Source: Thermoplasmata archaeon
GTDB taxonomy: Archaea; Thermoplasmatota; Thermoplasmata; Lutacidiplasmatales; UBA184
NCBI GenBank assembly: GCA_035502035.1
Contig: DATJUZ010000059.1
Location: forward strand, 6,650 to 70,649
Reading direction: 5' to 3'
Length of the DNA stretch: 64,000 bases
A model generated the notes under the pieces. It searched no databases, was not told the origin of the DNA, and saw only the letters and a program-made list of their open reading frames with translations. Shown here piece by piece: positions 29,834 to 56,221 of this stretch (positions are counted from its first letter, which is position 1; each line of letters starts with the position of its first letter). A program made the translations under genes and the position numbers.

Positions 29834-31206
29834 TCGAACCCGGCCTGCGGGGGGAGTTCCCGGCGCTCGCGGGCGGTCCCGGCCGAGATCCTCCCGCCTA
29901 CCTCGACTCCGCCTGCCTCTCGCTCACCCCGCGGGCGACCCTGCGCGCGATGGAGGAGTACTACACCGACTACCCCGGCTGCGCGGGCCGCAGCGTGCAT
30001 CGGTTCTCGGCCGAGGTCGGCCGACGGTTCGAGGAGGCGCGCGAGCGGTTCGCCCGGTTCTTCGGCCAACGGGACGCGGGCGGCGTCGTCTTCCTCCGGA
30101 ACGCGACCGAGGGGCTCAACCTCGTCGCCCAGGGCCTCGCGTGGAAGCGGGGGGACCGGGTCCTGATCACCGACCGCGAGCACAACTCCAACCTCGTCGT
30201 CTGGCAGCGCCTCGCCCGCGAGCGGGGGATCCGGCTCGAGATCCTCCCGCTGGACGACGCGGGAGGCTTCGACGGGGAGGCGCTGGACGCCCGGCTCGCC
30301 CGGGGCGTCCGGCTCGTCAGCGTGTTCCACACGTCGAACCTCGACGGGCGGACGCTGCCGCTCGAGGAGATCACCGAGCGGGCGCACGACCGCGGCGCCT
30401 TCGTGCTCGCCGACGGCTGCCAGGCCGCGCCCCACCGGCGCGTCGACCTCGAGCGCCTCGGGGTCGACGCCTACGCCGTCAGCGCCCACAAGATGCTCGG
30501 CCCGAACGGCGTCGGCCTCCTGCTCGCGGCCCCCGGCGTCCTCGACCGCGTGCGCCCCCTCGTCCTCGGAGGGGAGACGGTCGTCTCGACGACCACGACC
30601 GACCACGTGCTCCGGCCCCCGCCGCACCGCTTCGAGGCCGGCCTCCAGAACTACGCGGGCATTCTCGGGGCCCGGGCCGGCCTCGACGTGCTCGAGCGGG
30701 TCGGGCTCGAGGCGATCGAGGAGCACCAGACCCGGCTGAACCGGACGGTGACGGCCGCGCTCGCGGACGAGCCCCGCGTCCGGCTGATCGGGCCGGCGTC
30801 GCCCGACGATCGCCCGAGCATCTACGCGTTCACCGTGGACGGCGTCGACCCGAACGACGCCGCGCTGTTCCTGGACGAGGGACACGGGGTCCTCGTCCGG
30901 TCCGGGATGCACTGCGTCCACTCCTACTACGCCGCCCGCGGGCTCCCGGGGAACGTGCGGGCGTCGTTCTACCTCTACAACGACCGCCGCGACGCCGAGC
31001 GCCTCGTCGACGGAGTGCGCGAGCTGCTGGAGCGCGTGCCGGGCCGGCCCGTCAGCGGTACATCGGCTGCGAGGGGGGGCTCGCGACGTCCGGGCGCTGT
31101 CGGTCGGCGGCGCGCCGCTGGATCTGGAGCAGCTGCTGCTCGATCCGCTCGGCCTCGGCGTAGAGCGGAACGGCGTCCAGCGGGCTCCGCAGCAGGATCC
31201 GGCTGA
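29830..31206 (+). CDS. Class V aminotransferase / cysteine desulfurase-like (SufS/NifS family)
   Basis: 458 aa from MIEPGLRGEFPAL (ATGA overlap 29830-29833). Contains YLDSACLSL, HNSNLVVWQ, SAHKMLGP (PLP lysine) and SGMHCVH motifs. The Arg/Ala/Gly-rich C-terminal tail overlaps the convergent PAC2 gene by 155 nt. Confidence 0.8.
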   Translation: MIEPGLRGEFPALAGGPGRDPPAYLDSACLSLTPRATLRAMEEYYTDYPGCAGRSVHRFSAEVGRRFEEARERFARFFGQRDAGGVVFLRNATEGLNLVAQGLAWKRGDRVLITDREHNSNLVVWQRLARERGIRLEILPLDDAGGFDGEALDARLARGVRLVSVFHTSNLDGRTLPLEEITERAHDRGAFVLADGCQAAPHRRVDLERLGVDAYAVSAHKMLGPNGVGLLLAAPGVLDRVRPLVLGGETVVSTTTTDHVLRPPPHRFEAGLQNYAGILGARAGLDVLERVGLEAIEEHQTRLNRTVTAALADEPRVRLIGPASPDDRPSIYAFTVDGVDPNDAALFLDEGHGVLVRSGMHCVHSYYAARGLPGNVRASFYLYNDRRDAERLVDGVRELLERVPGRPVSGTSAARGGSRRPGAVGRRRAAGSGAAAARSARPRRRAERRPAGSAAGSG

Positions 31207-31864
31207 TCGTCTCGATGACCTTCGCGGCCGCCCGCGCGTCCGGGTAGTCGGCCTGCGCCTCGGCGAGGAACGTCAGGACGTCGAACCCCCGGCGCCGGCC
31301 CTCGTTCAGGAGGACCCCGGCGATGCCGGTGATGACCCCCTCGTTGAACGGCACCGTGTTCGGGTCGATGTAGAGGTCGCGCGCCTTGCGCGTGCTCGCG
31401 ATGCCGAAGACCTTCACCTCGCCGAGGCCGCCGCGGCCTTTCCGCGGCGCCGTCGCGGGCGCCTCGACGACGAGCCCCTCGGGCGAGACGAGCAGCGAGC
31501 AGCGCTGCTCCTGGACCCAGTCGAGGATCGCCGTCGCGAGGGGGCTGATCACCGCGGGCGCCGGGTGGAACTCGGAGACGAACGCGACGATCTTGTCGGC
31601 GCCCTTCCCCGTCCGGTCGACCTTCGGACGCCCGGCGTAGATCCGGACCGGATGCTGCGGGATCCCGTTGCGGACGAGGGAGACCGTCGGGAACGACGGC
31701 GACTCCACGATGCCGATCTGCTCCATCTGGAGGGTGTCGATGAGGTAGTTCGCGACGATCGAGCTGACGAGGCCTACCGACGGGAAGCCGTCGATGACGA
31801 TCGCCCCCTCGACGTCGACGCGCTTGATCTCGTAGATGCGGACCTGATCCGGTGCGACGACCAT
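31052..31864 (-). CDS. PAC2 family protein (proteasome assembly chaperone-like)
   Basis: 270 aa. Contains GAIVIDGFPSVGLVSSIVANYL near the N-terminus and GVITGIAGVLLNEG...AEAQADYPDARAAAKV, typical of archaeal PAC2/PbaA-B-like proteins. Confidence 0.75.
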   Translation of the reverse strand: MVVAPDQVRIYEIKRVDVEGAIVIDGFPSVGLVSSIVANYLIDTLQMEQIGIVESPSFPTVSLVRNGIPQHPVRIYAGRPKVDRTGKGADKIVAFVSEFHPAPAVISPLATAILDWVQEQRCSLLVSPEGLVVEAPATAPRKGRGGLGEVKVFGIASTRKARDLYIDPNTVPFNEGVITGIAGVLLNEGRRRGFDVLTFLAEAQADYPDARAAAKVIETISRILLRSPLDAVPLYAEAERIEQQLLQIQRRAADRQRPDVASPPSQPMYR

Positions 31865-32227: not shown

Positions 32228-32335
32228 CGGCGGCGGGAGCGGCGCTGGGACGATAAGCGTTCGCTCGGAGCGGCCGCTCAGGGCGTTCCCTCGACACGAA
32301 GCCGTTAATGCTCGGGGCTCCTCGCCGCCGACGGT

Positions 32336-32439
32336 GGGCCGGTAGATCAGCGGAAGATCGCGACCTTGGCAAGGTAGAGGTCGCGAGTTCAAAGGGCGCC
32401 CGGGACGGTTCCCGGGGCCGGAAGTTCTCGCCCGGTCCA
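32336..32439 (+). tRNA. tRNA-Ala (anticodon GGC) with a 32-nt intron in the T-loop (between positions 59 and 60)
   Basis: - Acceptor GGGCCGG/CCGGUCC with a G3:U70 pair and discriminator A73.
- U8, A14, G18G19 and A21 present. D-stem GAUC/GAUC.
- Anticodon loop UUGGCAA (anticodon 32368-32370).
- T-stem GCGAG/CUCGC. T-loop UUCAAA + U is restored by removing 32394-32425.
- One G:A mismatch in the anticodon stem.
- No encoded CCA. Confidence 0.75.
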
Positions 32440-32504
32440 CTCCCGCCGGTCCCTCGGGACCTTCGGCACCTGTCGAAACCGGCGAACGACACGAAGGTCA
32501 GCGA

Positions 32505-32510
32505 TTTATA
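32505..32510 (+). promoter_or_regulatory. TATA box for a leaderless XRE-regulator/mevalonate operon transcript
   Basis: TTTATA lies 24 nt upstream of the GTG start at 32534. Confidence 0.45.
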
Positions 32511-32533
32511 GCGGGGTCGGCTCGTTCGGTCCC

Positions 32534-33208
32534 GTGCAACCGGAGATCCGCGAGAAGATCGCCGGCGAGGTCGTCCTCTCGCCGCATCCGGGCCGGACCC
32601 TGCGCAAGTGGCGCGAGGACTTCCACGTCTCGCAGCGCGACCTCGCGAAGCAGCTCGCGACCGTCCCGAGCGTCATCAGCGACTACGAGAGCGAGCGCCG
32701 CAGCAGCCCTGGCGCCGGCTTCATTCGCCGCTACGTCGACGGGCTCCTCGCCCTCGACCAGCGCCACGGAGGCCATCTCGGAGCCCCGGGGGCGCCCGAG
32801 CACTCGGACGGCATTCTCGGCCTGCGCGAATTCGCGGTCGCGATGCCCCTGAAGAGCTTCGCCGACCGCCTCGAGGCGCGCGCGGTGAGCCGCGTCGACC
32901 TCCACCGCGACCTCCACGGGTTCACCGTCGTCGACGCCCCGCGCGCGATCCTGTCGATGGACGCGAGCCGGTTCGTCGAGGTCTACGGCTGGACGACCCA
33001 GCGGGCGATCGTCTTCGCGAACGTCAAGTACGGGCGCTCCCCGATGGTCGCCATCCGCGCGCACCCGTTGAAGCCCGCAGCGGTCGTCTTCGCCAACCCG
33101 GGCCGCATCGACGCGCTCGCCATCCGCCTCTCCGAGGTGGAGAACATCCCGCTCCTCACCACGTCGCTCGCCGCTCCGGCGGTGTTGGAGCGTCTCGAGG
33201 AGCTGTAG
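32534..33208 (+). CDS. XRE-family helix-turn-helix transcriptional regulator with uncharacterised C-terminal domain
   Basis: 224 aa. HTH segment [34 protein letters not shown]. The opposite-strand ORF 32498..33229 is Arg/Asp-rich and is rejected. Confidence 0.7.
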
Positions 33209-38999: not shown

Positions 39000-39007
39000 G
39001 GTGCGGG

Positions 39008-39114
39008 CGGGCCTGTCGGGAGTTCCCGTCCCGGGGCGCGCGTCCCCGGGACCTTTGAACCCGAGATTGCTGGCTTAGAAGGCCAGTACTTTGTCCAGGC
39101 TAAGCTACAGGCCC
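39008..39114 (-). tRNA. tRNA-Arg (anticodon UCU) with a 32-nt intron in the T-loop (between positions 59 and 60)
   Basis: Read on the minus strand:
- Acceptor GGGCCUG/CAGGCCC with discriminator G. U8 and A9 present.
- D-arm GCUU-AGCCUGGACA-AAGU.
- Anticodon arm CUGGC-CUUCUAA-GCCAG (anticodon 39079-39077).
- T-stem UCGGG/CCCGA. T-loop UUCAAA + U is restored by removing 39053-39022.
- No encoded CCA. Confidence 0.75.
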
Positions 39115-39233
39115 GCGGCCCTCGGAGGGAGGACGAACCGTAAGAACCTGCCGGGGGAGCGGCAGGGGCGTCGGCCGCCGGCGGGGCGGGCCGGGTCTCC
39201 TCGCGCGCGTGCAACGACGCCGGGTCCGTCGGG

Positions 39234-55557: not shown

Positions 55558-55992
55558 ATGCCGTCGCGCACGCGGAAGTTCCGGGGGCTTCGGACGCACG
55601 GTCGGGGGATCAAGGCCGGCCGCGGCGCCGGCAAGCAGGGCGGCCGCGGGAACGCCGGGCTCCACAAGTACAAGTTCAAGTCGATGCTGATCTACGCGCC
55701 GGACCACTTCGGCCGCCACGGCTTCGTGCGGCCGGACGCGGTCACGGAGCGTCCGACCTCGCTCAACGTCGGGGAGCTCGAGGCGTTCGTCCCGACCCTC
55801 GAGGCGGCCGGCGCCGTGGCGCGCGACGGCGAGACGTTCGTCGCCGACCTCACGAAGGCCGGGGTCGACCGGCTCCTCGGCGGCGGCGCCCCCGAGCGGC
55901 CGTGGAAGGTGAAGGTCGGCTACGCCTCGCGGCACGCCCGCGAGAAGGTCGAGGTGCTCGCCCCCGACGGCGCGAAGGCGCCCGCGGCCTAA
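55558..55992 (+). CDS. rpl15: 50S ribosomal protein L15 (uL15)
   Basis: 144 aa. Contains RKFRGLRTHGRGIKAGRGAGKQGGRGNAG. Confidence 0.95.
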   Translation: MPSRTRKFRGLRTHGRGIKAGRGAGKQGGRGNAGLHKYKFKSMLIYAPDHFGRHGFVRPDAVTERPTSLNVGELEAFVPTLEAAGAVARDGETFVADLTKAGVDRLLGGGAPERPWKVKVGYASRHAREKVEVLAPDGAKAPAA

Positions 55993-56005
55993 CGCCCCCG
56001 CCGGC

Positions 56006-56221
56006 CTACAGCTTCGTCAGGATATCGTCGATCTCCCGCGCCGCCGCCTCGAGCTCCTTGGCGGCGCGGCGCGCGGCGGCCTGGGCGGAGCGCTTCGGGT
56101 CCTTCGCGATCCGCTCGGCGTGCTCCAGCACGCGGCGGGCGAGCTTCGCGCTCTCGCGCGCGAGCTCCTGCGCGGCCCGCTTCGCCTCTCCCAGCGCGGC
56201 GTCCAGGCTCTGCTCCTCCAT
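56006..56221 (-). CDS. Small coiled-coil protein (hypothetical)
   Basis: 71 aa, Ala/Glu/Arg/Lys-rich helical sequence. Downstream of and co-oriented with nikR. Convergent with rpl15 (13-nt gap). Confidence 0.45.
   Translation of the reverse strand: MEEQSLDAALGEAKRAAQELARESAKLARRVLEHAERIAKDPKRSAQAAARRAAKELEAAAREIDDILTKL

Follow-up and report, generated by a model that had tools for sequence, protein, structure and literature searches.

A tRNA-Ala(GGC) gene very probably interrupted by a protein-spliced T-loop intron at position 59/60 in a Thermoplasmata archaeon, and introns of the same design in other tRNA genes of its family

The interrupted gene at positions 32336..32439 (+) of the window, by which we mean the whole 64,000-nucleotide stretch of DNA analyzed, is in all likelihood a functional and probably essential tRNA-Ala(GGC) gene with an archaeal intron, spliced by proteins, between T-loop nucleotides 59 and 60. 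Introns of this kind are already known; what sets this one apart is its host lineage, the plain alpha'2 splicing endonuclease (EndA) of that host and the number of tRNA genes affected. Ten other tRNA genes of the same genome carry an intron of the same design, and matches to a model of the interrupted T-arm were found in every sampled genome of the family. Whether the alanine intron belongs to a burst of T-loop introns, specific to this position, across the family and under a strict alpha'2 EndA is in our estimate an even call.

Organization of the interrupted gene

The unspliced form of the gene is 104 nt long. Exon 1 (58 nt, 32336..32393, +) comprises the 5' strand of the acceptor stem, the D-arm, the anticodon arm with the anticodon GGC at 32368-32370, the variable loop, the 5' strand of the T-stem (32383-32387) and T-loop nucleotides 54-59 (32388-32393), so that it ends in TTCAAA. 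The 32-nt BHB intron (32394..32425, +) lies between T-loop nucleotides 59 and 60. It consists of a single nucleotide, i1 (32394), which is the third base of bulge 1; a 25-nt inner hairpin, h' (intron nucleotides 2-26, 32395-32419); the sequence GGAA, which faces U54-A57 (32420-32423); and GT (32424-32425), the first two bases of bulge 2. Exon 2 (14 nt, 32426..32439, +) supplies U60, the 3' strand of the T-stem (32427-32431), the 3' strand of the acceptor stem (32432-32438) and the discriminator A73 (32439).

Removal of the insert leaves a 72-nt product with a 7-bp acceptor stem that includes G3:U70, with A73, the T-stem GCGAG/CTCGC and the 7-nt T-loop TTCAAAT. The G3:U70 pair is the alanine identity element of tRNA, and the window gene has all the alanine features: G3:T70, A73 and the anticodon GGC. 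A first-pass annotation, made from the DNA letters alone, had described the splice sites, G3:U70, A73 and the T-arm, and the sequence reads as claimed there; also present as claimed are the 25-nt hairpin, a helix of UUC with GAA, and both 3-nt bulges, AA/G and GU/U, divided here at the splice site. The same annotation called the spliced tRNA canonical. This description overlooked a G28.A42 mismatch in the anticodon stem (CGACC/GGTAG; nucleotide 28 is window position 32362). All 22 same-genus relatives that were read have T28, and with it a perfect CTACC/GGTAG stem, so the mismatch is private to this assembly. It could be an assembly or sequencing error, or else a private substitution that yields a slightly impaired allele.

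The locus is intergenic, with a PAC2-family gene (31052-31864, -) on one side and an HTH gene (32534-33208, +) on the other; the long ORFs that overlap the tRNA locus have no Pfam match. The TATA-like element TTAATG (32305..32310, +), which lies upstream of the mature 5' end by about 26-31 nt, is a putative promoter, and in an alignment of 20 orthologous loci a TTATC- or TTTATC-like element is found at the same spacing in most of them. Between the tRNA and the HTH gene there is also an inverted repeat, (C)TGTCG-N11-CGACA(G) (32468-32500, +), with TCGGCA ahead of it and a TATA-like GATTTATAG after it at ~32503-32511. Most of the 20 orthologous loci retain the repeat, which may be a candidate operator of the HTH regulator.

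Behavior of tRNA-finding programs and the level expected by chance

ARAGORN made no call at 32336-32439 on the raw sequence, either with or without its anticodon-loop intron mode, and called tRNA-Ala(ggc) after scripted removal of 32394-32425. The Rfam tRNA model gave the unspliced gene a partial match of 23.6 bits at 32336-32407, against a cut-off of 29 bits. This alignment uses the start of the insert as the 3' end and breaks the T-stem and acceptor pairs; the insert begins with 12 nt similar to exon 2, and for this reason the region is aligned as a full-length tRNA, though a poor one. The first-pass description of the gene as hidden is therefore apt for ARAGORN and for Rfam. It probably does not extend to tRNAscan-SE 2.0 in archaeal mode; with that tool, a study of the Lutacidiplasmatales recorded a tRNA set covering all 20 amino acids in the type genome (PMC9287336).

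The weight of an ARAGORN call on a spliced sequence was gauged by a brute-force BHB-and-splice scan of the whole genome, which has a GC content of 72.8%. This returned 514,295 BHB-like sites, 215 of them with an ARAGORN tRNA that spans the junction. Many of the 215 are noise, being either false alternative splicings of intact tRNAs or matches in coding sequence, so that a lone ARAGORN call on a spliced sequence is insufficient evidence of a gene. The window locus is judged to stand above this chance level by comparison with other genomes. Scan calls were kept when they had the T-loop motif end, a second exon of 12-17 nt and either a partial Infernal match or a match to the covariance model R1 described below.

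Several other calls were discarded. The intron-allowed mode of ARAGORN, run genome-wide, proposed implausible genes by the dozen, their introns running to hundreds or thousands of bases. The candidate at C59:62567-62658 (window 55918-56009, -), a 92-nt 'tRNA-Arg(tcg)' according to ARAGORN, is not tRNA-like and is likely a GC-rich false positive, and the candidates C8:4226-4316, C59:72970-73055, C36:35226-35317, C54:237-334 and C35:29556-29655 were dropped on reading their sequences. None of these six has an Infernal match at E <= 1.

Conservation of the locus in related genomes

Forty relatives were sampled by BLAST, of which 24 are genomes of the same genus. The match runs through the intron region in 23 of these 24. 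All 22 of the loci that were read, including that of the unpublished genome G019, have an intron at 59/60; the 23rd locus is truncated where its contig stops. Across the 22 relatives the exons are nearly invariant and the insert sequence is free to vary, with intron lengths of 28-34 nt in the 19 relatives measured. Exon 2 is invariant in the relatives apart from a single A/G change, which co-varies with C/T at acceptor position 5.

Outside the family, intron-less orthologs provide a direct view of the uninterrupted gene. The spliced product is identical at 65 of 72 positions to the intron-less tRNA-Ala(GGC) of a sister-family genome (G029), which scores 67.5 bits with the Rfam tRNA model, and the two genes agree throughout the last 29 nt, a stretch that runs from the variable loop through the junction to A73. 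The T-loop of tRNA-Ala(GGC) is likewise uninterrupted in order- and class-level relatives; in two genomes of the same order and another family (G026 and G028) it is instead the anticodon loop of this gene that has an insert, of 12-13 nt. Two independent lines bear out the junction proposed in the first-pass annotation: the 3' part of the intron-less genes of sister lineages, which is identical to that of the predicted spliced product, and the combination of variable intron and fixed exons in 22 relatives.

That annotation had also named an intron-free second tRNA-Ala(GGC) as a finding that would count against its reading. No second tRNA-Ala(GGC) was detected in the genome, whose completeness is 86.6%. 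In four Pfam-supported ORFs, GCC and GCT together account for 77 of 154 alanine codons and for 77 of 1287 codons overall.

Structure and covariation of the splice motif

In the interrupted gene the T-stem forms the outer helix, h, and the GC-rich 25-nt intron hairpin the inner helix, h'. The central helix of the window gene has three standard pairs, U54-A, U55-A and C56-G, plus an A57.G mismatch. Bulge 1 is A58-A59-G(i1) and bulge 2 is G-T-U60 (i31-i32-U60); they lie on opposite strands and each contains a splice site. The bulge layout, AA+N on one strand and NN+T on the other, is found in 20 of 20 orthologs (the window gene and 19 others) and in 11 of 11 paralogs. The same 20 orthologs all have an inner hairpin that closes at or near its ends, and in all of them the strand opposite U54-A57 is GGRR, so that only purines face the two U residues.

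Covariation was assessed in an alignment of 27 T-arm-plus-intron sequences, made up of the 11 paralogs of this genome and 16 orthologs. Paired cells amounted to 90.7%, compared with 68.7% in shuffles. The covariation score was 0.565, compared with 0.182 for shuffled alignments; none of 500 shuffles reached 0.565, and sliding the 3' partners gave scores of 0.06-0.18. Two-sided changes occur at all seven h' pairs and at four of the five T-stem pairs. The T-stem is 100% paired and h' 91.5% paired, and both helices belong to the minimum free energy (MFE) structure. Every one of the 27 sequences has the two 3-nt bulges and the two flanking helices in intact form. In the central helix, the four positions are paired in 27, 27, 26 and 4 of the 27 sequences, respectively, with A57.G in the remaining 23. 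None of the four central pairs shows two-sided covariation, because the T-loop strand of this helix never varies.

The MFE structure predicted by ViennaRNA for the T-arm segment of the window gene lacks the central helix, the BHB structure having an energy of -24.9 kcal/mol and the MFE structure -28.3 kcal/mol. For the A57-type genes the energy of the BHB structure exceeds the MFE by 3-6 kcal/mol. Four genes have G at nucleotide 57. In three of these the partner is C and the central helix is a full 4 bp; in the fourth, tRNA-Asn, G57 pairs with C but C56 is opposite C. The full BHB is the MFE structure in tRNA-Asp (-23.0 kcal/mol) and is near it in tRNA-Gly (-22.4 versus -22.5 kcal/mol) and in tRNA-Arg(TCG) (-20.4 versus -22.0 kcal/mol).

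The splicing endonuclease and the ligase

EndA is encoded by a single 354-aa ORF on contig C3, in which the domain tRNA_int_endo (PF01974) is matched twice (90.6 and 57 bits) together with the N domain PF02778. No further EndA gene was found in the genome. Over residues 78-336 the protein can be aligned with the dimeric enzyme of A. fulgidus (1r0v). Residues 187-354, the catalytic repeat, are matched by residues 4-171 of M. jannaschii EndA (1a79), 168 to 168, so that there is no net insertion, and the stretch before the catalytic His has three residues fewer than that of A. fulgidus. Given both the equal length of the catalytic repeat and the shorter stretch before the His, EndA has no specific-loop insertion. 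The first-pass annotation had asked for the EndA subunit type; judged by its sequence, the only EndA found in this genome is of the tandem-repeat alpha'2 type without a specific loop and is predicted to act as a dimer. The genome also encodes RtcB (PF01139, 559 bits). The relatives of this EndA come from MAGs of soil and peat Thermoplasmata, UBA184 and AcS-named genomes among them.

Other interrupted tRNA genes in the genome

The assembly (G000) is 1.66 Mb in 61 contigs and has about 37 recognizable tRNA genes, 11 of which carry a 59/60 intron of the same design, 26-33 nt long. These are the genes for Ala(GGC), Arg(TCT), Arg(TCG), Glu(CTC), Asn(GTT), Asp(GTC), Ser(GCT), Ser(GGA), Ser(CGA), His(GTG) and Gly(TCC). 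Nine of the 11 overlap partial Infernal tRNA matches, seven of which fall below the cut-off. The intron-bearing tRNA-Asp, -His and -Asn genes are the only ones for these amino acids that are recognizable in the assembly. The tRNA-Arg(TCT) gene is also in the window (39005-39115, -); its 32-nt intron at 59/60 has a central helix TTCA/GGGA and the bulges AA+g and ac+T. ARAGORN models this gene wrongly, as a tRNA of 82 nt at 39035-39116, and the Rfam match covers only part of it (59 nt, 32.3 bits).

When the 11 paralogous introns were compared with one another for signs of recent transposition between genes, their mean pairwise identity was 0.614, against 0.574 +/- 0.009 in shuffles; the best pair had an identity of 0.74, a value reached by 10 of 200 shuffles. 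The shared G-rich/C-rich hairpin design may be the source of the raised mean.

Insertions at other positions were also observed. Ordinary 37/38 introns are present in at least four tRNA genes of the genome, with tRNA-Met, -Tyr and -Leu(TAA) among the carriers. Inserts of about 35 nt in the D-loop are found in tRNA-Arg(GCG) (C8:66957-67068, -) and in an initiator-like tRNA-Met(CAT) (C10:10410-10512, -), which have Rfam scores of 26-28 bits. The tRNA-Trp(CCA) gene (C7:89769-89929, -) has an 87-nt intron at the canonical position with ATGACGA and CTGA motifs, which we take to recall the box C/D guide RNA of euryarchaeal tRNA-Trp introns. Such guide RNAs are mentioned in PMC4090602.

Distribution across the Thermoplasmata

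R1 is a covariance model of the T-arm plus intron that was built from the 27 sequences of this lineage. In the genome under study it detects 10 of the 11 intron-bearing genes and misses the 26-nt intron of tRNA-Arg(TCG) on contig C6; its 64.2-bit match at the window gene is not independent evidence, because the window sequence is in the training set. Matches to R1 were found in all 121 sampled genomes of the family, which represent seven genera and include three unpublished genomes, with 4-14 matches in each.

Each genome of one sister family (f2) has two R1 matches at E <= 0.001, and those that were read are tRNA-Arg(CCG) and tRNA-Ala(CGC) genes whose 59/60 inserts are AT-rich and about 20-33 nt long. 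A second sister family (f3) gives weaker matches, to 59/60 inserts of 11-15 nt that have no inner hairpin. In the AT-rich relatives G026 and G028, the loci L141, L142, L146 and L147 have 11-15 nt inserts at 59/60 with TGAA or CGAA opposite the T-loop; these hairpin-less inserts look like a relaxed form, similar to a bulge-helix-loop (BHL). Both genomes give 10-13 weak R1 matches at E <= 1, and one gene has a D-loop insert too.

Class-wide, R1 matches at E <= 0.01 were found in 83 of 151 genomes with a completeness of at least 85%, mostly 1-5 per genome, a count that includes weak matches. The 22 matches outside the family that were inspected by reading are without exception tRNA T-arms with an insert after TTCRAA.

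The order Lutacidiplasmatales, formerly TMEG, includes the UBA184 and AcS genomes and is described as having about 69% GC and a genome of about 2.1 Mb (PMC9287336). Going by the names of its EndA relatives, the window probably comes from an uncultured soil archaeon of this order. In that study, tRNAs were annotated with tRNAscan-SE 2.0.5, and the type genome has tRNAs for all 20 amino acids; the word 'intron' does not occur in the main text of the paper. We found no description of T-loop introns in Thermoplasmata in the literature searched, to which Supplementary Table S7 of PMC8450103, with introns per genome, did not belong.

Proposed splicing pathway and alternative explanations

The intron of the window gene is very probably spliced, to judge from the sequence features presented above. 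We infer transcription of the gene, cleavage at the predicted bonds, ligation and the order of these events as follows. In the precursor, the T-arm would be prolonged into one long irregular hairpin, with the T-stem as the outer helix h, U54-U55-C56(-A57) paired with intron GGAA as the central helix, and the 25-nt hairpin as h'. The bulges A58-A59-i1 and i31-i32-U60 would hold the scissile bonds. The alpha'2 EndA would cut in both bulges and RtcB would then join the exons. The T-loop, and the tertiary contacts between the D- and T-loops, would form only after the exons are joined.

Two other explanations deserve consideration. The locus might be a tRNA pseudogene in decay, or a tRNA gene into which something has inserted (a duplicated attachment site left behind by an integrating element would be one case), and be neither spliced nor used. 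The G28.A42 mismatch of the window copy would suit such a history, as would the likeness of the first 12 nt of the insert to exon 2, which underlies the 23.6-bit Rfam match at 32336-32407. However, this likeness is not conserved among the relatives, and for that reason we reject the specific reading of the insert as a duplicated tRNA 3' end. More generally, decay is hard to reconcile with exons that are almost invariant in 22 relatives around an insert that varies yet keeps its pairing. It would also have silenced the only tRNA-Ala(GGC) found, when half of the sampled alanine codons are GCC or GCT, and the same design recurs in 10 other tRNA genes, including the only recognizable ones for Asp, His and Asn. 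We regard a pseudogene or insertion origin as very improbable.

The other explanation accepts splicing but holds that the motif, with its 3 bp and A.G in the central helix, is relaxed and needs an enzyme of broadened specificity or a helper factor rather than a standard EndA for strict BHB motifs. The prevalence of A57.G (23 of 27 sequences) and the 3-6 kcal/mol by which the BHB lies above the MFE in A57-type genes are in its favor; so are the hairpin-less, BHL-like 59/60 inserts of 11-15 nt in sister family f3, and the reported tie between non-canonical introns, or tRNA gene disruption, and EndA-specific loops (PMC5829648). Against these points stand the two 3-nt bulges and flanking helices, intact in 27 of 27 sequences, and the enzyme itself: just one EndA gene was found, its catalytic repeat matches the M. 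jannaschii enzyme 168 to 168 with no net insertion, and its stretch before the His is three residues shorter than that of A. fulgidus. A need for a broadened enzyme or a helper thus appears unlikely, though somewhat less so than a pseudogene.

A tRNA-Ala(GGC) gene spliced by the plain alpha'2 EndA remains the preferred explanation. The family would then have about one third of its recognizable tRNA genes interrupted off-position with a plain alpha'2 EndA kept, and off-position introns under such an enzyme support the view that EndA constrains the strictness of the motif and not its position. If the burst of 59/60 introns is real and previously undescribed, tRNA introns away from the usual position can multiply with no broadening of the endonuclease, as long as they keep the full 3-4-3 motif, and the T-arm, which mirrors the anticodon arm in structure, would be a favored target of the process that creates introns. 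The lineage would offer a natural set of T-loop substrates for study in vitro. There is a practical consequence as well: such genes are missed or wrongly modeled by ARAGORN and by the Rfam tRNA model, so that the genomes of this abundant soil lineage would seem to be without tRNA-Ala(GGC), -Asp, -His, -Asn and others.

Comparison with known systems

The site 59/60 is among the listed positions of non-canonical tRNA introns, and Euryarchaeota with alpha4 or alpha2 endonucleases are described as having few tRNA introns, all at 37/38 (PMC4090602); these enzymes are reported to need the strict 3-4-3 motif (PMC3239211), a need that counts against our preferred reading where A57.G stands in the central helix. 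Both the lineage and the scale of the present case are unusual for Euryarchaeota. The closest parallel in position is ARMAN-2 (Ca. Micrarchaeum acidiphilum), where pre-tRNA-Pro(GGG) has strict hBHBh' introns at 53/54 and 59/60, and pre-tRNA-Cys(GCA) has a 13-nt relaxed hBH intron at 59/60 that is cut in vitro by the epsilon2 EndA (PMC3239211). The two systems share the T-loop site, a BHB-type motif built on the T-stem, and removal by EndA, which in our case is predicted. They differ in the enzyme, a three-unit epsilon2 EndA of broad specificity in ARMAN-2 and a plain tandem alpha'2 here. The intron described here is also longer (32 nt), with a stable inner hairpin and both bulges, and is one of 11 such genes rather than of one or two.

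Thermoproteales and other Crenarchaeota resemble the present lineage in having protein-spliced BHB introns away from 37/38, in many genes per lineage, which simple gene finders miss (PMC4090602, PMC8450103). According to the same papers, their EndA is an (alpha-beta)2 enzyme with a specific loop, and their introns occupy many positions and often have relaxed motifs, whereas here, in a lineage of the Thermoplasmata, there is mostly one site, 59/60, with what appears to be the full 3-4-3 geometry.

The canonical hBHBh' intron at 37/38 appears from its sequence to have a geometry identical to that of the window intron, set on a 5-bp stem with a 7-nt loop. In both, an intron strand lies opposite loop nucleotides 1-4, cleavage would take place after loop nucleotide 6, and bulge 2 has the final nucleotide of the loop as its third base. 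The canonical intron is built on the anticodon arm and the window intron on the T-arm; because of this, an unspliced intron at 59/60 would block formation of the T-loop and not of the anticodon loop.
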